Origin: Escherichia phage vB_EcoP_PR_Kaz2018
DNA length: 39,704 nt
Reading direction: 5' to 3' (one strand)
Sequence record: MN510331.1
This document shows positions 205 to 39,704 of the stretch, piece by piece (the stretch's first letter is position 1; every line of letters begins with the position of its first letter). The notes under the pieces were generated by a model that was given only the letters and a program-made list of their open reading frames with translations, was not told the DNA's origin and did no database searches. The position numbers were made by a program, and so were the translations under genes.

Positions 205-316
205 CCTACAGTCATAACCTCTACATCTCATAACCATAACTCAAAACCTACAGTCTAACTAACCTACAGTCATAGAACCATCGGTAACCACTACCTACAG
301 TCAGAGACCTACAGTT
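205..316 (+). repeat. Array of five CCTACAGT(C/T) direct repeats next to the left terminal repeat
   Basis: Copies at 205..213, 247..255, 263..271, 294..302 and 308..316, irregularly spaced. Confidence 0.8.
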
Positions 317-5477: not shown

Positions 5478-5551
5478 CAGACCTACAGTTACTGGCCTTG
5501 TGGCTGGGAGCACTAGCAGTATTCACTTTAATCCAACGCAGAAGAGGTTAA

Positions 5552-5574
5552 CCTAAACTATCACTATAGGATTA
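5552..5574 (+). promoter_or_regulatory. Phage-RNAP promoter
   Basis: CCTAAACTATCACTATA-GGATTA, +1 G at 5569. Confidence 0.8.
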
Positions 5575-5616
5575 GACTCAAGGTCATGACTCAAAGTCGT
5601 GGCCTTCATGATTAAC
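5573..5616 (+). promoter_or_regulatory. Late-type hairpin element (TAGACTCAAGGTCAT ... GTGGCCTTCATGATTAAC); putative RNase III site
   Basis: 8-bp stem AAGGUCAU (5580..5587) with GUGGCCUU (5599..5606); same element at 12860..12900 and 36453..36496. Confidence 0.5.
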
Positions 5617-5647
5617 CCTAACTAATCAATACAGGAGCTTTAACACC

Positions 5648-5828
5648 ATGTATCAGAACACTATCAACTTCGAGCGCATCCGTGAACGTCAGCAGACTTG
5701 AAGATTACATTCCGAAGGGCCGCAAGCTGAACAAGACTAAGCGGGGCGGAGGTGTCAAAGGCGCTTTCCGTAACGCTGAAGGCAAAGACTCTCTGGTTAA
5801 CCAAGAGAAGTATTTCGTAGGAGCATAA
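5648..5828 (+). CDS. 1.1: Gene 1.1 homolog, apparently interrupted by a +1 frameshift
   Basis: ATG 5648 with AGGAG RBS gives MYQNTINFERIRERQQT then TGA at 5699; the overlapping frame to 5828 encodes ...SRLEDYIPKGRKLNKTKRGGG..., matching the KGRKLNKTKR core I remember in T7 gp1.1. Confidence 0.4.
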
Positions 5829-7229: not shown

Positions 7230-7487
7230 ATGTCTAAGAACTTAATGTTCAACCGTTATTCCAATACCTTCCACCTGTCTCACAACCCGTTCGCTTGCAT
7301 TAAGCGCAACGAGAAGCTGGGATACTTCGGGAAGGCCGTTAAGCTGTCACCTACAGTCTTCGCTCTGATTACTCCCGGCAAAGCTGAAGAGGCTCGCCAG
7401 AAGCGTGAGACCGACGTACCTGTGGTATACACCAAGTGGCCTCGCGTTCGTCTGTTTATTGAGTTCGTGAAGGAGGTGATCTTATGA
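7230..7487 (+). CDS. Hypothetical protein (85 aa); gene 1.6 position
   Basis: ORF track; RBS AAGGAGACTCT upstream; assignment by position only. Confidence 0.7.
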   Translation: MSKNLMFNRYSNTFHLSHNPFACIKRNEKLGYFGKAVKLSPTVFALITPGKAEEARQKRETDVPVVYTKWPRVRLFIEFVKEVIL

Positions 7488-8348: not shown

Positions 8349-8503
8349 CTGAGGTTGAAAAGAAATACATCGTGGAGCTTGAGGGACGCGTTCAGTCCTT
8401 CGAGGTTCCGTTGTACGCAAAGTCTCTTGAAGAGGCTACCCTGAAGTCCCAAGAGTATGAGGACGCTGGGTTTGTGGTCGGACGGATTCGTCCTGAGACC
8501 TAA
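8345..8503 (+). CDS. 2: gp2-like inhibitor of host RNA polymerase (52 aa)
   Basis: Hand-translated ...[35 protein letters not shown] matches remembered T7 gp2 ([34 protein letters not shown]); AAGGAG RBS. Confidence 0.85.
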
Positions 8504-8521
8504 ACTATCACTGTAGGACAG
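8499..8521 (+). promoter_or_regulatory. Phage-RNAP promoter (variant CTGTA at -5 to -1)
   Basis: CCTAAACTATCACTGTA-GGACAG, +1 G at 8516; the gene 2 stop TAA is the TAA of the promoter. Confidence 0.7.
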
Positions 8522-17176: not shown

Positions 17177-17199
17177 ACTAAACTATCACTATAGGGACT
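17177..17199 (+). promoter_or_regulatory. Phage-RNAP promoter
   Basis: ACTAAACTATCACTATA-GGGACT, +1 G at 17194. Confidence 0.8.
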
Positions 17200-17260
17200 T
17201 TAGGACCTAAGATATGACTATAAGATAGACTTTAGTCTTAACTTAAAGAGGAGATTCAAG

Positions 17261-17533
17261 ATGGCGATTAATGCTATTGAAAACGTTGTTAAGCAGTTAC
17301 AGGAAGAAAGACTTGATGTCCCTAACATCTCCCAGTCTGCCATCCAGTTCCTGCACGTATTGTTCAACGCAAGCTATGCTGAGAAGATGGGAGCTATCAG
17401 TCTCCTCAAGCAGCAAGGCTACAGCGATGCGTTCATTGCCGGGTTCATCAAGGGTCTCCAGTATTGTTCTGACACTCTCGACTCTGCGATTGCTATGCGT
17501 CGTGAGCTGAAAGATACCGTTCAGTTCGATTAA
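17261..17533 (+). CDS. Hypothetical protein (90 aa); gene 6.5 position
   Basis: ORF track; RBS AAAGAGGAGA; assignment by position. Confidence 0.8.
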   Translation: MAINAIENVVKQLQEERLDVPNISQSAIQFLHVLFNASYAEKMGAISLLKQQGYSDAFIAGFIKGLQYCSDTLDSAIAMRRELKDTVQFD

Positions 17534-18433: not shown

Positions 18434-20002
18434 ATGGCTAAACGCGAAGGATTTGCCGCTGAAGGCGCGAAGTCAGTTTATGATAGACTGAAGAACGGTA
18501 GACAGCCATATGAGACACGCGCTCAGAACTGTGCTGCTGTCACTATCCCATCACTGTTTCCTAAGGAGTCAGACAACTCGTCTACAGAGTACACAACTCC
18601 GTGGCAAGCTGTAGGTGCTCGCTGCTTGAACAACTTAGCTGCAAAGCTGATGTTGGCATTATTCCCTCAGTCACCGTGGATGCGACTGACAGTCTCCGAA
18701 TATGAGGCAAAGACCTTGAGTCAGGACTCAGAGGCGGCTGCTCGTGTTGATGAAGGGCTGGCTATGGTCGAGCGTGTGTTGATGGCTTACATGGAGACTA
18801 ACAGTTTCCGTGTCCCATTATTCGAGGCGCTGAAGCAGCTTATCGTCTCAGGTAACTGCCTGCTCTACATCCCTCCTCCAGAACAAGGAACCTACAGTCC
18901 TATGCGAATGTACCGCTTAGTGTCCTACGTTGTTCAACGTGATGCTTTCGGTAACATCTTACAGATTGTGACTCTCGACAAGGTAGCGTTTAGTGCTCTA
19001 CCGGAAGACGTGAAGTCTCAACTCAACGCAGACGACTATGAGCCTGACACCGAGCTTGAAGTGTATACGCACATCTACCGTCAGGACGACGAGTATCTGC
19101 GCTACGAGGAAGTGGAAGGCATTGAGGTGACAGGGACCGATGGTTCCTACCCGCTGACTGCATGTCCATACATCCCGGTACGAATGGTTCGACTGGATGG
19201 TGAAGACTACGGTCGTTCTTACTGCGAGGAGTATCTGGGAGACCTGAACTCGCTGGAGACGATTACAGAAGCTATCACTAAAATGGCTAAGGTAGCCTCC
19301 AAGGTGATTGGCCTCGTTAACCCGAACGGTATCACGCAACCTCGACGTCTGAACAAGGCGGCTACAGGTGAGTTCGTGGCTGGTCGCGTTGAGGACATCA
19401 ACTTCCTGCAACTGACGAAAGGTCAGGACTTTACGATTGCCAAGTCGGTGGCTGATGCTATCGAGCAACGTTTAGGCTGGGCCTTCCTTCTTAATAGTGC
19501 TGTTCAGCGTAATGCCGAGCGAGTCACTGCTGAAGAGATTCGTTATGTTGCTGGCGAACTGGAGGCGACCTTAGGTGGCGTGTACTCAGTACAGTCACAA
19601 GAGCTTCAGTTACCTATCGTCCGTGTTCTGATGAACCAGCTTCAGTCTGCTGGAATGATTCCTGACCTTCCGAAAGAAGCGGTAGAGCCTACGGTCTCCA
19701 CTGGTCTGGAAGCGTTAGGTCGTGGTCAAGACTTAGAGAAGCTGACTCAGGCGGTGAACATGATGACTGGACTTCAGCCTCTGGCTCAGGACCCGGACAT
19801 CAACTTGCCGACCCTTAAGCTGCGACTCCTGAACGCTCTGGGTATAGACACCGCTGGACTACTCCTGACGCAAGACGAGAAGATTCAGCGCATGGCTGAA
19901 CAGTCGTCTCAACAGGCAGTAGTCCAAGGTGCTGGTGCTGCTGGTGCCAACATGGGCGCTGCTGTAGGTCAGGGAGCTGGTGAGGACATGGCTCAAGCCT
20001 AA
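18434..20002 (+). CDS. 8: Portal (head-tail connector) protein
   Basis: YETRAQNCA, TPWQAVGAR.LNNLA.KLMLALFP, YRLVSYVVQRDAFGN, RMVRLDGEDYGRSY, VTAEEIRYVA match T7 gp8. Confidence 0.97.
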   Translation: MAKREGFAAEGAKSVYDRLKNGRQPYETRAQNCAAVTIPSLFPKESDNSSTEYTTPWQAVGARCLNNLAAKLMLALFPQSPWMRLTVSEYEAKTLSQDSEAAARVDEGLAMVERVLMAYMETNSFRVPLFEALKQLIVSGNCLLYIPPPEQGTYSPMRMYRLVSYVVQRDAFGNILQIVTLDKVAFSALPEDVKSQLNADDYEPDTELEVYTHIYRQDDEYLRYEEVEGIEVTGTDGSYPLTACPYIPVRMVRLDGEDYGRSYCEEYLGDLNSLETITEAITKMAKVASKVIGLVNPNGITQPRRLNKAATGEFVAGRVEDINFLQLTKGQDFTIAKSVADAIEQRLGWAFLLNSAVQRNAERVTAEEIRYVAGELEATLGGVYSVQSQELQLPIVRVLMNQLQSAGMIPDLPKEAVEPTVSTGLEALGRGQDLEKLTQAVNMMTGLQPLAQDPDINLPTLKLRLLNALGIDTAGLLLTQDEKIQRMAEQSSQQAVVQGAGAAGANMGAAVGQGAGEDMAQA

Positions 20003-22939: not shown

Positions 22940-25296
22940 TGCCGCTTATTACTCAATCAATCAAGAACCTTAAAGGTGGTATTAGCCAACAGCCTGATAT
23001 ACTTAGGTTCTCAGACCAAGGCGAGGCACAGGTTAACTGCTGGTCATCCGAGAGTGATGGACTCCAGAAGCGTCCACCTACAGTCTTCAAGCGACGTCTT
23101 AACATCGACGTTGGAAGCAACCCTAAGTTCCACCTGATTAACCGTGATGAGCAGGAGCAGTATTACATCGTGTTCAATGGGTCAAACATTCAGGTAGTTG
23201 ACTTGAGTGGTAATCAATACTCAGTGTCAGGTTCGGTAGACTACGTTAAGTCCTCCAACCCACGAGATGACATCCGTGTCGTTACCGTGGCAGACTATAC
23301 GTTCGTCGTTAACCGTAAGGTTGTCGTCAAAGGTGGAAGCGAGAAGTCACACTCTGGTTATAACCGCAAAGCACGAGCTTTAATTAACCTGCGTGGTGGA
23401 CAGTATGGTCGAACCCTTAAGGTGGGAATCAACGGTGGCGTTAAGGTCTCGCATAAGCTACCAGCAGGTAATGATGCTGAGAATGACCCGCCTAAGGTGG
23501 ACGCTCAAGCCATTGGTGCAGCTCTGAGAGACCTTCTTGTTACTGCCTACCCTACCTTCACGTTTGACCTTGGGTCTGGATTCCTGCTAATCACAGCTCC
23601 TTCAGGGACCGATATTAACTCAGTGGAGACGGAGGATGGCTACGCTAACCAGCTAATAAGCCCAGTCCTAGACACTGTGCAGACAATCTCTAAACTACCT
23701 CTTGCCGCTCCTAATGGGTATATCATTAAGATTCAAGGTGAGACCAACAGTAGCGCCGATGAATACTACGTGATGTATGACTCCAACACTAAGACGTGGA
23801 AGGAGACAGTGGAGCCGGGAGTTATCACTGGGTTCGATAACACCACAATGCCACACGCTCTGGTACGACAATCTGACGGCTCCTTTGAGTTCAAGGCTCT
23901 GGACTGGTCTAAGCGTGGTGCTGGTAATGATGACACAAACCCTATGCCTAGCTTCGTGGATGCTACGATTAACGATGTGTTCTTCTATAGGAACAGGCTA
24001 GGGTTCTTGTCAGGCGAGAACGTAATCATGAGCCGTTCAGCAAGCTACTTTGCGTTCTTCCCTAAGAGTGTGGCGACACTGAGCGATGATGACCCTATTG
24101 ATGTAGCTGTAAGTCACCCTAGAATCTCAATCCTTAAGTATGCCGTTCCGTTTAGCGAGCAGCTACTACTTTGGTCAGATGAGGTGCAGTTCGTGATGAC
24201 AAGCTCAGGGGTCCTTACCTCGAAGTCTATCCAGCTTGATGTAGGCTCAGAGTTTGCCTTAGGAGATAATGCCAGACCGTTCGCTGTAGGACGCTCAGTC
24301 TTCTTCTCAGCGCCTCGTGGGTCATTCACCAGCATTAAGCGATACTTCGCTGTAGCAGATGTGTCTGACGTGAAGGATGCCGATGATACCACTGGTCACG
24401 TACTATCCTATATCCCTAACGGGGTGTTTGACATTCAGGGAACAGGGACTGAGAACTACATCTGCGTCAACTCTACAGGTGCATACAACCGAATCTACCT
24501 CTACAAGTTCTTGTTTAAGGACGGCGTACAGCTTCAATCCTCTTGGTCTCACTGGGAGTTCCCTAAAGCTGATAAGATTCTGGCGTCTGCATCGATTGGC
24601 TCTACCATGTTCATTGTTCGTCAGCACCAAGGAGGCGTGGACCTTGAGCACCTTAAGTTCATCAAGGAGGCAACTGACTTTCCGTCAGAGCCGTATAGAC
24701 TCCACGTTGACTCCAAGGTGTCTATGGTCATCCCAATTGGCTCGTTTAATGCTGACACATATAAGACTACGGTTGACATTGGTGCTGCTTATGGTGGTAA
24801 TGCTCCGTCTCCCGGTCGGTACTATCTGATTGACAGTCAGGGTGCTTATTTGGACCTTGGGGACTTGACCAGTATCTCTACTGTGATTACCCTCAACGGC
24901 GATTGGTCAGGACGTACAGTGTTCATCGGACGGTCCTATCTGATGTCCTACAAGTTCTCACGGTTCCTGATTAAGATTGAAGATGATAGTGGCACTCAGT
25001 CTGAAGACACTGGTCGTCTACAGCTTCGTCGGGCTTGGGTCAACTACAAGGACACTGGCGCTCTGAGACTCATTGTCAGAAACGGTGAGCGAGAGTTCGT
25101 TAACACCTTTAATGGGTACACCCTTGGTCAGCAAACCATAGGGACTACTAACATTGGTGACGGGCAGTATCGATTCGCTATGAATGGTAACGCATTAACC
25201 ACGAGTCTAACCTTAGAGTCCGACTATCCTACCCCAGTGTCAATCGTTGGATGCGGCTGGGAGGCATCATACGCTAAGAAAGCTCGTTCAATCTAA
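22939..25296 (+). CDS. 12: Tail tubular protein B
   Basis: Colinear with T7 gp12 (SIKNLKGGISQQPDILR, DPIDVAVS, ILKYAVPFSE, RLQLRRAWVNY, IGCGWE). Confidence 0.97.
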   Translation: MPLITQSIKNLKGGISQQPDILRFSDQGEAQVNCWSSESDGLQKRPPTVFKRRLNIDVGSNPKFHLINRDEQEQYYIVFNGSNIQVVDLSGNQYSVSGSVDYVKSSNPRDDIRVVTVADYTFVVNRKVVVKGGSEKSHSGYNRKARALINLRGGQYGRTLKVGINGGVKVSHKLPAGNDAENDPPKVDAQAIGAALRDLLVTAYPTFTFDLGSGFLLITAPSGTDINSVETEDGYANQLISPVLDTVQTISKLPLAAPNGYIIKIQGETNSSADEYYVMYDSNTKTWKETVEPGVITGFDNTTMPHALVRQSDGSFEFKALDWSKRGAGNDDTNPMPSFVDATINDVFFYRNRLGFLSGENVIMSRSASYFAFFPKSVATLSDDDPIDVAVSHPRISILKYAVPFSEQLLLWSDEVQFVMTSSGVLTSKSIQLDVGSEFALGDNARPFAVGRSVFFSAPRGSFTSIKRYFAVADVSDVKDADDTTGHVLSYIPNGVFDIQGTGTENYICVNSTGAYNRIYLYKFLFKDGVQLQSSWSHWEFPKADKILASASIGSTMFIVRQHQGGVDLEHLKFIKEATDFPSEPYRLHVDSKVSMVIPIGSFNADTYKTTVDIGAAYGGNAPSPGRYYLIDSQGAYLDLGDLTSISTVITLNGDWSGRTVFIGRSYLMSYKFSRFLIKIEDDSGTQSEDTGRLQLRRAWVNYKDTGALRLIVRNGEREFVNTFNGYTLGQQTIGTTNIGDGQYRFAMNGNALTTSLTLESDYPTPVSIVGCGWEASYAKKARSI

Positions 25297-32665: not shown

Positions 32666-35600
32666 ATGTCCACGATTACACAATTCCCTTCAGGAAACAC
32701 TCAGTACAGGATTGAGTTCGACTACCTCGCCAGAACGTTTATTGTTGTTACGCTGGTGAATAGCTCTAACCCTACCCTGAACCGTGTACTGGAAGTTGGT
32801 CGAGATTACCGATTCCTTAATCCAACGATGATTGAGATGTTGGTTGACCAATCAGGTTTCGACATCGTTCGTATTCACCGTCAGACTGGAACTGACTTAG
32901 TGGTAGACTTCAGGAATGGCTCAGTGTTGACAGCTAGTGACCTGACCAATTCAGAGCTTCAGGCTATCCATATTGCAGAAGAAGGTCGAGACCAAACGGT
33001 TGACTTAGCGAAGGAATATGCCGATGCTGCTAGTAGCTCTGCTGGCAACGCTAAGGATAGCGAGGACGAAGCACGACGAATCGCTGAGAGTATCAGGGAA
33101 GCTGGTCTAATTGGCTATATTACCCGTCGCTCCTTCGAGAAAGGCTACAACGTTACAACATGGAGCGAGGTCCTGCTATGGGAAGAGGATGGTGATTATT
33201 ACCGCTGGGATGGTACGCTTCCAAAGAACGTTCCTGCTGGTTCAACTCCTGAAACTTCCGGTGGGATTGGATTAGGTGCGTGGGTTAGTGTTGGTGATGC
33301 TGCTTTAAGAAGTCAGATTTCAAATCCTGAAGGGGCAATACTCTACCCTGAATTACATAGAGCACGCTGGCTTGATGAAAAAGATGTTCGTGGTTGGGGT
33401 GCTAAAGGTGATGGTATCACTGATGATACAGCAGCGTTAACGAGCGCATTAAACGACATACCGGTTGGACAAAAGATTAATGGCAATGGGAAGACATATA
33501 AGGTCACATCCCTGCCTGACATTAGTCGCTTCATCAACACTCGTTTCGTTTATGAGCGCATTCCCGGACAACCTCTTTATTATGCCTCTGAGGAATTTGT
33601 TCAGGGTGAGTTGTTCAAAATAACGGACACCCCTTATTACAATGCGTGGCCTCAGGATAAAGCGTTCGTATATGATAATGTGATATATGCACCTTACATG
33701 GGTAGCGATCGTCATGGTGTTAGTCGTCTGCATGTATCATGGGTTAAGTCTGGTGATGATGGGCAAACATGGTCTACTCCAGAGTGGTTAACTGATCTGC
33801 ATCCAGATTACCCTACAGTGAACTATCACTGTATGAGTATGGGTGTATGTCGCAACCGTCTGTTTGCCATGATTGAAACACGTACTTTAGCCAAGAACGC
33901 ATTAACCAATTGTGCATTGTGGGATCGCCCCATGTCTCGTAGCCTGCATCTTACTGGTGGTATCACTAAAGCTGCAAATCAGCAATATGCAACAATACAT
34001 GTACCAGACCACGGACTATTCGTGGGTGATTTTGTTAACTTCTCTAATTCTGCGGTAACAGGTGTCTCCGGTGATATGACTGTTGCAGCCGTAATAGATA
34101 AGGACAACTTCACGGTTCTTACACCCAACCAGCAGACTTCAGATTTGAATAACGCTGGAAAGAATTGGCACATGGGTACTTCTTTCCATAAGTCTCCATG
34201 GCGTAAGACAGACCTTGGTCTAATCCCTCGTGTCACAGAGGTGCATAGCTTTGCTACTATTGATAACAATGGCTTTGTTATGGGTTATCATCAAGGCGAT
34301 GTAGCTCCACGCGAAGTTGGGCTTTTCTATTTCCCTGACGCTTTCAATAGCCCATCTAGTTATGTTCGTCGTCAGATACCATCTGAGTATGAACCAGATG
34401 CGTCAGAGCCATGCATCAAGTACTATGACGGTGTATTATACCTTATCACTCGTGGCACTCGTGGGGATAGGCTAGGTAGCTCTTTGCATCGTAGTAGAGA
34501 CATAGGTCAGACTTGGGAGTCACTGAGATTTCCACATAATGTTCATCATACTACATTACCTTTTGCTAAAGTAGGGGATGACCTTATTATGTTTGGTTCA
34601 GAACGTGCAGAAAATGAATGGGAAGCAGGTGCACCAGATGATCGTTACAAGGCATCTTATCCTCGCACCTTCTATGCACGCTTGAATGTAAACAATTGGA
34701 ATGCAGATGATATTGAATGGGTTAACATCACTGACCAGATTTATCAGGGCGGAATAGTTAACTCAGGTGTAGGTGTTGGTTCGGTAGTTGTGAAGGATAA
34801 TTACATCTACTACATGTTTGGTGGAGAGGACCATTTTAACCCATGGACCTATGGAGATAACTCAGCGAAGGACCCATTCAAAGCGGATGGTCATCCCTCA
34901 GATTTGTATTGCTACAAAATGAAGATTGGCCCAAGCAATCATGTTTCCCGTGATTTCAGGTATGGTGCTGTACCTAACAGAGCTGTTCCCGTGTTTTTTG
35001 ATACGAATGGGATTCGCACTGTTCCTGCGCCAATGGAATTTACAGGGGATTTGGGTTTAGGCCATGTGACCCTTAGAGCCAGCACCAGTAGTAACATTCG
35101 CTCTGAAGTTTTAATGGAAGGTGAATATGGGTTTATCGGGAAGTCTATACCGACTGATAACCCGGCAGGGCAGCGCACCATATTTTGCGGAGGTGAAGGC
35201 ACCAGTTCAACGACTGGCGCACAGATTACGCTTTATGGTGCAAATAACACCGACTCAAAGCGAATAGTTTACAATGGTGATGAGCATCTGTTCCAGACTG
35301 CTGACGTTAAGCCTTATCACGATAACGTCATTGCGCTTGGTGGACCAAGTAACCGTTTCACAACTGCATATCTCGGAAGCAACCCTATTGTTACTTCTAA
35401 TGGGGAGAAGAAAACAGAGCCGGTAGTTTTTGATGATGCTTTCCTCGATGCCTGGGGTGACGTTCACTACATCATGTATCAATGGTTAGATGCTGTTCAA
35501 CTGAAAGGCAATGATGCTCGTATTCACTTCGGGGTTATTGCTCAGCAAATTCGTGATGTATTCATTGCACACGGTCTGATGGATGAAAACAGTACGAATT

Positions 35601-35993: not shown

Positions 35994-36188
35994 ATGATTG
36001 AGTTAGACTTCAAGAATGAGGTCCTTAAAGCCTCTCCTATCGTCGGGACCGCTGCGGCTGATGGTGCCAGTCGGTTCTTCTTCGGACTTACACTGAACGA
36101 ATGGTTCTATGTTGCAGCTATCGCGTACACCGTTGTCCAGATTGGTGTGCTAGTCTACAAAACGATTAAAGGAGGTGGTAAAACATGA
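35994..36188 (+). CDS. 17.5: Holin (class II)
   Basis: MIELDFKNEVLKASPIVGT...FFGLTLNEWFYVAAIAYTVVQIG matches T7 gp17.5. Confidence 0.85.
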   Translation: MIELDFKNEVLKASPIVGTAAADGASRFFFGLTLNEWFYVAAIAYTVVQIGVLVYKTIKGGGKT

Positions 36189-36448
36189 CGCAGATGGACT
36201 TAGAGAAGTTCCTCTTGATGCTTGATACTGAGCGTGCTCGACTTATGCTGCAAGACTTGCGGGATGACACTAAGCGTTCACCTCAGCTCTACAACGCCAT
36301 TGAGAAGCTGCTTGCTCGTCACAACTTTGTGTTAAGCAAGGTGTCTGTTGACGAGAAGACGCTGGCTGATATGGAGGCCCTGAACGCAGAGTACGATAAG
36401 GTGCTCTCAGCTACGGAAGATAATGACACCGGGTATGGTGTTCAATAA
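36185..36448 (+). CDS. 18: Terminase small subunit
   Basis: LLMLDTERARLMLQDL.D..RSPQLYNAIEKLLARH matches T7 gp18; position before Rz and terminase large. Confidence 0.9.
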   Translation: MTQMDLEKFLLMLDTERARLMLQDLRDDTKRSPQLYNAIEKLLARHNFVLSKVSVDEKTLADMEALNAEYDKVLSATEDNDTGYGVQ

Positions 36449-37000: not shown

Positions 37001-38757
37001 GTAAAGATTTAGTGGCGCGTCAGGCGCTAATGACTGCCCGTATGAAGGCAGACTTCGTGTTCTTCCTGTTCGTCCTGTGGAAAGCTCTGTCACTACCAGT
37101 CCCGACTCGCTGTCAGATTGACATGGCGAAGAAACTATCGGCTGGGGACAACAGGCGTTTCATCCTACAGGCGTTCCGTGGTATCGGGAAGTCCTTCATT
37201 ACGTGTGCATTCGTGGTCTGGAAACTATGGAATAACCCAGACTTGAAGTTCATGATTGTGTCGGCCTCAAAGGAACGAGCCGATGCGAACTCCATCTTCA
37301 TCAAGCGAATCATAGACCTCATGCCTCAGCTTCAGGAACTTAAACCTAAGCAGGGGCAGCGAGATGCGGTTATCAGCTTCGACGTTGGACCAGCCAAGCC
37401 AGATCACTCACCTTCGGTTAAGTCCGTTGGTATCACTGGTCAGTTGACTGGTAGTCGTGCTGACATCCTGATTGCCGATGACGTGGAGGTTCCTAACAAC
37501 TCAGCGACTCAGGCTGCACGAGACCGTCTGTCAGAGCTTGTGAAAGAGTTCGACGCTATCCTGAAGCCGGGAGGTACAATCATCTATCTGGGTACTCCTC
37601 AGAACGAGATGACCTTGTATCGTGAGCTGGAAGGTCGTGGATACACCACTACCATCTGGCCCGCTCGCTACCCACGCGATAAGAAGGACTGGCAGTCTTA
37701 CGGCGACCGTCTGGCTCCTATGCTTCAGGCAGAGCTTGAAGAGGACCCTGAGTCCTTCTACTGGCGTCCTACCGATGAAGTACGATTCGATGATACGGAC
37801 CTGAAGGAACGTGAGCTGTCATATGGTAAAGCTGGCTTCGCTCTACAGTTCATGCTTAACCCTAACCTGAGTGATGCCGAGAAGTACCCTCTGAAGCTCC
37901 GTGACCTTATCGTAGCAGACTTGGACCCAGCGTCTAGCCCAATGGTCTACCAATGGCTTCCTAACCCTCAGAACAAGCGTGAGGACGTTCCTAACGTTGG
38001 ACTCATGGGCGACTCATACCACACGTATCAGACTGTAGGTTCTGCCTTCAGTTCGTACACCCAGAAGATTCTGGTCATTGACCCTAGTGGTCGTGGTAAG
38101 GATGAAACGGGTTATGCGGTACTGTACCAGCTAAACGGCTACATCTTCGCTATGGAAGTTGGCGGTATGCGAGGTGGCTATGAAGACTCTACGCTGGAAG
38201 CCTTGGCTAAGATTGGTCGTAAGTGGAAGGTAAACGAATACGTCATTGAGGGTAACTTCGGTGATGGTATGTACCTTGAGCTATTCAAGCCTGTAGCTTC
38301 CCGTATTCATCCTGCTGCTGTAACTGAAGTGAAGAGTAAAGGTCAGAAGGAACTCCGCATCTGTGACGTTCTGGAGCCTATCATGGGGTCTCACCGACTT
38401 ATCGTCAACGCTGCTGCTATCGTCCAAGATTACCAGTCTGCCTCTGATAAGGATGGTGTTCGTAACCCTATCTACTCTCTCTTCTACCAGATGACACGTA
38501 TCTCTCGTGAACGTGGGGCCTTGGCACACGATGACCGACTTGATGCGCTGGCTATCGGTGTACAGTTCTTCGTTGAGTCTATGGCGAAGGATGCCAACAA
38601 AGGCGAACGTGAAGTCACTGAGGAGTGGCTGGAGGAACAGATGGAGAACCCACGGAAAGGCTTCGAGTCCATCCACACGGAGTTCTGGGACAATGGGGTC
38701 CGGGTAACTCACGATACCGACGAGCTGGGACTAGGGTCCTACGTTACGTTCCACTAG
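36997..38757 (+). CDS. 19: Terminase large subunit
   Basis: [80 protein letters not shown] match T7 gp19; apparent TTG start 7 nt after AAGGAGG. Confidence 0.97.
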
Positions 38758-38851: not shown

Positions 38852-38874
38852 ACTTAACTATCACTATAGGAAGA
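38852..38874 (+). promoter_or_regulatory. Phage-RNAP promoter near the right end (phi-OR position)
   Basis: ACTTAACTATCACTATA-GGAAGA, +1 G at 38869; same 20-nt sequence as the promoter at 2474. Confidence 0.75.
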
Positions 38875-39318: not shown

Positions 39319-39450
39319 AGACCTAAGGTCAGTTCATAGCTAACGCTACTCTACTGACCTTAGCTACTGTAGTCAAGGACTTTAGGTAACACCTTAAGAG
39401 AAGCTCACTTAGTGTCATCCTACTTATTGGTCTATCCTAGTGTCGCCTGA

Positions 39451-39489
39451 CCTACGGTCCTTGACCTACAGTGGCTGTGGCCTACAGTA
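39451..39489 (+). repeat. Three CCTAC(A/G)GT repeats next to the right terminal repeat
   Basis: CCTACGGTC 39451..39459, CCTACAGTG 39465..39473, CCTACAGTA 39481..39489. Confidence 0.6.
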
Positions 39490-39526
39490 GTGACGATGAG
39501 TTTTGGACCAAAAGTTTGAGACCACA

Positions 39527-39704
39527 TCTCACAGTTCAAGAACCTCAAGTCTCCCCATAGGCCCTCTTTAAGTCCAGACCAAAGGCCCTACCCCAGTCTG
39601 TCATAAGGTTGGACCGATGGTCAAGACTTCAGGTCAACGATAGGTCAAGGCTATGGCTTAGGGAAGGACGATAGGTAGGGGCTATAGGTCTGTCTTTGAG
39701 TCTC
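39527..39704. repeat. Right direct terminal repeat (178 bp)
   Basis: Identical to 1..178. Confidence 0.95.

Follow-up and report, generated by a model that had tools for sequence, protein, structure and literature searches.

The window analyzed in this study is the whole 39,704-nucleotide stretch of DNA recorded for Escherichia phage vB_EcoP_PR_Kaz2018, and this 39,704-bp genome is that of a K1F-like Kayfunavirus in the subfamily Studiervirinae. The first 1000 bases matched Escherichia phage K1F over their full length with 95.4% identity, and the whole window showed 1875 substitutions, no indels, and 95.28% identity when compared with the K1F record DQ111067, which has the same length. The two K1F records differ from each other in length by 5 bp. 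The genome announcement gave 39,704 bp, 178-bp terminal repeats (TRs), and 95.28% identity to K1F, and the ends of vB_EcoP_PR_Kaz2018 (MN510331) were fixed by comparison with K1F (PMC6895311). The finding of zero indels despite 4.7% divergence from K1F suggests that the window sequence may be a reference-guided consensus, and array copy number is therefore the sort of detail that is possibly wrong. Run-off sequencing fixed the termini of the Kayfunavirus phages SH3–SH5 (PMC4925675), which supports the end positions used here. Genes 18 and 19 matched the packaging families of T7; taken with the similarity to K1F and the 178-bp direct TR, this marks the phage as T7-like, with terminase of the T7 type. 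The features of the window considered below are as follows.

1–178, + strand: left copy of the TR, identical to 39527–39704 and matching the annotated 178-bp terminal repeat of EcoDS1
180–186, + strand: ATCTGTA directly after the TR, equivalent to ATCTGTT, the class II pause/termination signal of the T7 concatemer junction
192–200, + strand: degenerate array element CCTTGAGTC, a variant of the form CCT-NN-AGTC; relatives have CCATAAGTC, CCTCAAGTC, or CCATAGGTC here
204–213, + strand: left-array (SRL-type) copy 1, ACCTACAGTC; the aligned word varies, being CCATAAGTC in K1F and CCTCAAGTC in EcL30g
246–255, + strand: left-array copy 2, ACCTACAGTC, from the word search
262–271, + strand: left-array copy 3, ACCTACAGTC, from the word search
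293–302, + strand: left-array copy 4, ACCTACAGTC, from the word search
307–316, + strand: left-array copy 5, ACCTACAGTT, from the word search
5482–5489, + strand: isolated interior CCTACAGT, judged to be outside the array system
36185–36448, + strand: gene 18, small terminase subunit (Pfam PF11123, DNA_Packaging_2, E = 3e-12; annotated as terminase small subunit in EcoDS1)
37030–38757, + strand: gene 19, large terminase subunit (Pfam PF22530, T7 terminase RNaseH-like domain, E = 5e-38)
38852–38874, + strand: promoter for the phage RNA polymerase, counterpart of phiOR (30.9 bits; the equivalent EcoDS1 promoter is annotated phiOR)
39450–39458, + strand: right-array (SRR-type) copy 1, ACCTACGGT, 76 bp before the TR (−74 to −77 in 11 of 13 phages; 83% pairwise identity)
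39464–39472, + strand: right-array copy 2, ACCTACAGT, 62 bp before the TR (−60 to −63 in 13 of 13 junctions)
39480–39488, + strand: right-array copy 3, GCCTACAGT, 46 bp before the TR; five relatives have a CTCCTAAGGAG-like sequence instead
39494–39526, + strand: 33-bp block CGATGAGTTTTGGACCAAAAGTTTGAGACCACA, with 98% pairwise identity among 13 phages, abutting the left-end cut site
39527–39704, + strand: right copy of the TR, identical to 1–178

A preliminary description of this DNA, made from its letters, had placed five copies of ACCTACAGT(C/T) just inside the left TR and three copies of CCTAC(A/G)GT just outside the right one. Both clusters were confirmed, at 204–316 and 39451–39488, respectively, and all eight copies were on the + strand. 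Word starts in the left cluster were 205, 247, 263, 294, and 308, with copies 1–4 extending to ACCTACAGTC and copy 5 to ACCTACAGTT, and those in the right cluster were 39451 (CCTACGGT), 39465, and 39481. Exact CCTACAGT occurred 15 times on the two strands compared with 1.6 expected from shuffled sequences, none of 100 shuffles reaching 15, and CCTACRGT occurred 19 times compared with 2.5 expected. The chance that at least five of the 12 + strand matches would fall within a given 112 bp was P = 1.4e-10, or 5.5e-6 when corrected for all window positions. The + strand density was 45 per kb in the left array and 79 per kb in the right array, whereas it was 0.13 per kb in the interior; the motif is thus not similarly frequent across the genome, the circumstance that the preliminary description had named as a refutation. 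The right-end array stops 38 bp ahead of the TR and the left-end array begins 26 bp past it. Since the exact 178-bp TR is present at both ends, the two clusters bracket a single TR in a concatemer, as had been proposed, and the same layout was found in all 13 Kayfunavirus genomes. Tandem Repeats Finder called no array in positions 1–700 because the spacers are too diverged, and a simple tandem repeat was rejected on this result. Left copy 1 and right copy 3, both canonical in the window, are CCATAAGT and CCTACAGC, respectively, in K1F itself.

For the comparison within the genus, the junction (right array, TR, and left array) was assembled for 12 other Kayfunavirus genomes, whose hosts are Escherichia, Enterobacter, Salmonella, Shigella, Cronobacter, and Pectobacterium, giving 13 junctions with the window. 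The word was present on both sides of the TR in 13 of 13, with 1–3 copies to the left of the TR (2–3 in every junction except that of EcoDS1) and 3–6 copies to the right. The junctions held 90 copies in total, every one of them on the + strand and outside the TR. The base preceding the word, which lay outside the search pattern, was A in 80 of the 90 copies, and the spacing between copies was 14–16 bp in 41 of 64 intervals, with most of the remainder at approximately twice that distance. The copies of the right array hold fixed distances from the cut site (−76, −62, and −46). Among the 13 phages, right-array copy 2 showed 98% pairwise identity compared with 65–71% for the adjacent spacers, and copy 3 showed 64%, which is not above background.

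The left arrays were fluid, comprising 3 to 6 copies and expanding in units of 14–15 bp with the word kept. The left arrays of AN17P1 and PDP351P3 contained 3–4 tandem 15-bp units, and that of EcoDS1 (190–290) contained four tandem 14-bp units of a second word, CCATAAGTC. Aligned left-array positions alternated among CCTACAGTC, CCATAAGTC, CCTCAAGTC, and CCTTCAGTC, and the variant elements CCATAAGTC and CCTCAAGTC occupy positions homologous to the array word; the second word, as (A)CCATAAGTC, took turns with CCTACAGTC in several left arrays, namely at K1F 203–211 and in the ST55, Monomax, and P762 junctions. The generalized array element can be written as ACC-NNN-AGTC. A 2026 paper on the Kayfunavirus phage Sparklingdew described a 15-bp tandem unit, AACCTACAGTCCTAC, at both ends of the assembly, with a coverage anomaly adjoining the TR, and the tandem locus upset both assembly and terminus prediction (PMC13298934). 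This unit agrees with the window arrays in genus, word, and location beside the TR; it was published as a tandem-repeat locus only, with no tie to T7 SRL/SRR and no proposed function (PMC13298934). A scan of viral contigs for two words 6–8 bp apart returned, among chance or unrelated matches, several contigs of approximately 39–40 kb with the pair approximately 200–300 bp from the start of the contig sequence examined.

Several other elements lie at the junction. The sequence TATCTGTAT was invariant in 13 of 13 Kayfunavirus junctions, and the records of EcoDS1 and K11 label the position of the pause site 'concatemeric junction'. The T7 class II signal is a defined 7–8-bp sequence, which is reported to be strictly sequence-specific and to be abolished by any base change (bioRxiv 10.1101/2021.01.11.426313). 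The window has its counterpart at the same spot, immediately to the right of the TR, with the last base changed from T to A. Because any base change reportedly kills the signal for T7 polymerase, the Kayfunavirus site may well co-vary with polymerases of the K1F type. This signal is a neighbor of the arrays and not the repeats themselves. On the other side of the TR, the 33-bp block, which holds the palindrome TTTTGG-A-CCAAAA at 39501–39513, is probably part of a cleavage or recognition site. Farther to the left, 164–204 bp from the right TR, two 11-bp arms, CTAAGGTCAGT / ACTGACCTTAG, formed a perfect inverted repeat around a loop of 19 nt (39323–39363). The arms were unchanged in the relatives compared and the loop varied, and the repeat folded as DNA with −11.2 kcal/mol (z = −3.2). 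Chung, Nardone and Hinkle reportedly proposed in 1990 a hairpin intermediate for T7 concatemer processing; the inverted repeat might be such a T7-type hairpin intermediate or an RNA processing site.

Promoters were located with a weight matrix derived from the 11 promoters annotated in EcoDS1, with a reporting threshold of 18 bits. There were 11 strong phage promoters in the window and none of them was in 1–2473 or in the arrays, and a reading of the arrays as phage promoters was rejected. The same scan gave no phiOL-type promoter at 1–2473, the first strong match being at 2474, just before gene 1; phiOL is annotated right after the left array in T7, T3, and K11. In a concatemer, transcription starting at the phiOR-type promoter would cross the right array and then the TR before reaching the pause site. 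A second, weak match to the promoter matrix, CCTAAGATATGACTATAAGATAG (18.7 bits), was noted at 17206–17228, 6 bp past the phi6.5 promoter at 17177–17199. Scans of 1–1100 for sigma-70 promoters and intrinsic terminators found none. The whole window had no Rfam match at the gathering threshold, and a structured RNA was rejected for this reason.

In T7, arrays of short repeats in the corresponding position were reportedly named SRL and SRR by Dunn and Studier in 1983. By position and sequence, the Kayfunavirus arrays are the K1F-group counterpart of these arrays, because they occupy the same place relative to the TR as the CCTAAAG arrays of T7 and T3, because the words are one base apart (CCTACAG in the window and CCTAAAG in T7 and T3 agree at six of seven positions), and because the compared genera have a site of the ATCTGTT type in the interval from the TR to the left array. 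As in T7 and T3, the arrays are directly internal to each TR copy and so flank the TR in the concatemer; they consist of many imperfect copies of a 7–9-bp word in one orientation with a spacing of approximately 13–16 bp; and the same word is used on both sides of the TR, with the pause site separating the TR from the left array. Exact CCTAAAG occurred eight times to the right of the left TR, twice to the left of the right TR, and three times inside the TR in T7, and two, four, and three times, respectively, in T3. The words on both TR sides were ACCTGAGG in K11, CCTAAGG in the Przondovirus cp31, and CTTAGTG in SP6. Thus, the words differ among the six lineages, yet those of each phage match on the two sides. 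The pause-type site after the TR was ATCTGTT in T7, T3, and K11, TATCTGTT, of the ATCTGTT type, in cp31, and TCTGTT in SP6, compared with ATCTGTA in all 13 Kayfunavirus genomes. The Kayfunavirus arrays also differ from those of T7 and T3. T7 and T3 have three copies each inside the TR, whereas Kayfunavirus has none; the window has fewer copies (5 + 3) than T7, whose left array holds eight exact CCTAAAG plus variants; and, unlike in T7 and T3, the second word CCATAAGTC alternates in some left arrays and there is no phiOL promoter after the left array.

Arrays of binding sites for the small terminase subunit beside the cut site are known from other phages, namely the R sites of lambda cosB and the pacL/pacR boxes of SPP1. 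The window arrays resemble them in being short direct repeats beside the place where terminase cuts, in a phage whose packaging starts from concatemers, with the right array 38 bp from the left-end cut and the left array 26 bp from the right-end cut. Whereas small-terminase binding has been demonstrated for the lambda and SPP1 arrays, those of the window are candidate sites known from sequence, and T7-type maturation, unlike that of lambda and SPP1, also needs TR duplication and RNA polymerase.

Besides the arrays, there were eight interior copies of CCTACAGT, five on the + strand (5482, 7350, 18891, 23077, and 33812) and three on the − strand (8510, 17533, and 38032), compared with 1.2–1.5 expected from low-order Markov models; eight Kayfunavirus genomes had 6–10 interior copies each. 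The preliminary description had taken the copy at 5482, which reads CCTACAGTT at 5482–5490 and ACCTACAGT at 5481–5489, to lie near the primary origin and to be a possible replication site. It is located 4 nt past the stop codon of gene 1.1 and 70 bp upstream of the promoter at 5552–5574, the first phage promoter after gene 1 according to the weight matrix. An AT-rich stretch (35–42% GC) extends over approximately 5520–5680 on the downstream side of this promoter, and in the T3 record the primary origin is annotated downstream of the corresponding promoter. The site is mutated to CCTGCAGT in EcoDS1, where an extra gene also lies between the equivalent site and the promoter, and to CCTTAAGT in EcL30g; it was retained only where its flanks were 94–99% identical. 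A T7/T3-type primary origin element was therefore rejected, as the copy lies outside the unit of promoter and AT-rich stretch and is not conserved above background. This copy, one of the eight interior ones, is judged to have no part in the array system, and the claim that it is a replication site at the origin was not supported.

Some other interior copies fall on known elements. The − strand copy at 8510–8517 coincides with a variant of the phi2.5 promoter (8499–8521), in which CACTGTAGG stands in place of the consensus CACTATAGG; five of seven relatives compared had the same variant, and Monomax and EcL30g had ACTTTAGG. The − strand copy at 17533 overlaps the ribosome-binding site of gene 6.7. 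Within gene 17, positions 33812–33838 contain the copy CCTACAGTG followed by AACTATCACTGTATGAG, which resembles the promoter core AACTATCACTATAGGA and is below the 18-bit threshold.

Enrichment of the word in genes was evaluated by shuffling synonymous codons in 41 coding sequences with the protein sequence and codon usage fixed, a null that is heavy-tailed, many words reaching z of approximately 5. CCTACAG occurred 16 times in coding sequence compared with 3.7 ± 1.8, a count that none of 1000 shuffles reached, and ACCTACAGTC occurred four times compared with 0.12 expected; examples of the array word in coding regions are at 7349–7358, 18890–18899, 23076–23085, and 38031–38040 (− strand). Among heptamers, CCTACAG held rank 3 of 7254 in the window, and its rank was 1 in both EcoDS1 and PDP351P3 and 5 in both AN17P1 and T147P5. 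CTACAG was the most over-represented hexamer in the coding sequence of the window (rank 1 of 2043; 43 compared with 15.7), and its rank was 4 in EcoDS1 and EcL30g, 76 in cp31, 130 in T7, and 553 in T3. All seven CCT-ACA codon pairs for Pro-Thr were followed by G. The enrichment of the array word was thus strong in all Kayfunavirus genomes tested, partial in cp31, and weak or absent in T7 and T3. However, CCTACAG was enriched in cp31 too (rank 19), though the arrays of this phage use CCTAAGG, and the array word of T7 and T3 was not clearly enriched in their own genes; these results weakened the case for an interior enrichment specific to array words. Conservation of the interior copies in orthologues was uninformative on selection because the flanks are 95–99% identical. 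We consider it very unlikely that the array word is part of a dispersed, genome-wide Kayfunavirus signal, in which the protein of the end arrays would also read interior sites as a self-marker, a loading signal, or an organizing signal.

We propose that the arrays may act in cis as a platform with multiple binding sites, to which an oligomeric phage protein active at the concatemer junction would bind, with gp18, the small terminase subunit, together with gp19 as the likeliest binder; in our judgment this reading has about an even chance of being correct. Alongside the invariant 33-bp block and the ATCTGTA pause site, the platform would mark the junction and direct where both ends are cut and how the TR is duplicated. 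Function over drift is supported by the occurrence of 90 of 90 copies on the + strand, the A before the word, the phasing, the fixed distances in the right array, the conservation of its copy 2, the retention of the word through the expansions of the left arrays, and the left-right match of the word within each phage in six lineages. A role of the arrays in concatemer processing or packaging, which the preliminary description had suggested, is plausible because genus-specific equivalents bracket the TR in T7, T3, K11, cp31, and SP6. The generality of this arrangement across genera stood up, and such a role is also what is customarily supposed for SRL/SRR in T7. In T3 and T7, a packaging recognition sequence lies within 5% of the genome ends, and an RNA polymerase-lysozyme complex pauses at the junction and engages gp18 and gp19 (PMC3276506); gp18 recognizes a site called PacB (PMC9860248). 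T3 and T7 tell each other's DNA apart in packaging (PMC3276506), yet both use CCTAAAG, and therefore the word alone cannot be the specificity determinant. Literature searches on SRL/SRR, pacB, and CCTAAAG returned no binding or packaging data for the array words in any phage. Two findings weigh on the other side: right-array copy 3, conserved no better than background, counts against the platform, and the over-representation of the word core throughout coding sequence counts against a purely junction-specific signal. Moreover, the 15-bp tandem expansion of the left array is also an expected product of neutral slippage.

Slippage leads to a different account, in which the space separating the TR from the first functional elements is filled by slippage-prone, rapidly evolving arrays without function, the word being kept by descent and local homogenization. 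It would fit the freely varying copy number and spacing of the left array, with 14–15-bp expansions in AN17P1, PDP351P3, EcoDS1, and Sparklingdew, as well as the divergence of right-array copy 3 to the level of the spacers, the lack of a Tandem Repeats Finder array in the window, and the lack of a phenotype on record. Such filler would hardly keep one word on both TR sides within every one of six lineages whose words differ, nor a uniform orientation in all 90 copies, nor a right-array copy 2 with 98% identity at a constant distance from the cut among spacers of 65–71%, and we regard this account as unlikely. A connection with transcription appears comparably improbable; here the arrays would influence how the phage RNA polymerase pauses, terminates, or is released at the junction, or would mimic promoters in part, and the polymerase would in turn trigger end maturation. 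Every copy points along the direction of transcription, the phiOR-type promoter at 38852 lies upstream of the right array, and the left array begins 18 bp beyond ATCTGTA. CTACAG and the promoter core CTATAG differ by a single transition, CACTGTAGG in the phi2.5 promoter is the reverse complement of the word, and polymerase pausing at the junction is reportedly needed for the start of T7 packaging (PMC3276506). However, the T7 class II signal is reportedly a strictly specific 7–8-bp sequence in itself, with no role for its flanks in the papers cited (bioRxiv 10.1101/2021.01.11.426313), and no phiOL-type promoter accompanies the Kayfunavirus left array. Nor does the likeness to promoters hold from genus to genus, as the words of K11 and SP6 do not appear to fit the promoter cores of these phages.

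Replication elements are a further possibility, with the arrays serving as iteron-like initiation or priming sites at the ends and at the primary origin. The secondary origins of T7 and T3 are tied to phiOL and phiOR near the ends, and one copy of the word in the window follows gene 1.1 and precedes the first middle promoter. That copy is upstream of the promoter, whereas the T3 origin is annotated downstream of its counterpart; it is a single copy and not an array, it is lost in EcoDS1 and EcL30g, and the left end has no phiOL-type promoter. These points leave the replication reading highly improbable. A T7-type primase site was rejected by reasoning from the known specificity of T7 primase, because the word would template pppACU... 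and not ACC or ACA. The first few hundred bp of T7 DNA enter the cell first, and the left array is inside the first few hundred bp, so by analogy the arrays might serve genome entry or end protection as leading-end sites for an ejected or early protein. This reading would not explain why the right end, the last to enter, has a matching array, and we give it hardly any credence. The binding platform at the concatemer junction is the reading that we prefer.

The layout described here is the known and expected junction architecture of T7-like phages, and it contains no new kind of element. Its value is modest and comparative. The present data suit the design of word-swap and scrambling experiments on arrays of the SRL/SRR type; useful features for this design are the genus-specific words matched between the two sides, the strict orientation, the phasing of approximately 15 bp, and the fixed right array as compared with the fluid left array. 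Kayfunavirus arrays disturb assembly and terminus prediction (PMC13298934). Engineered K1F-type phages and packaging plasmids should probably retain the arrays.
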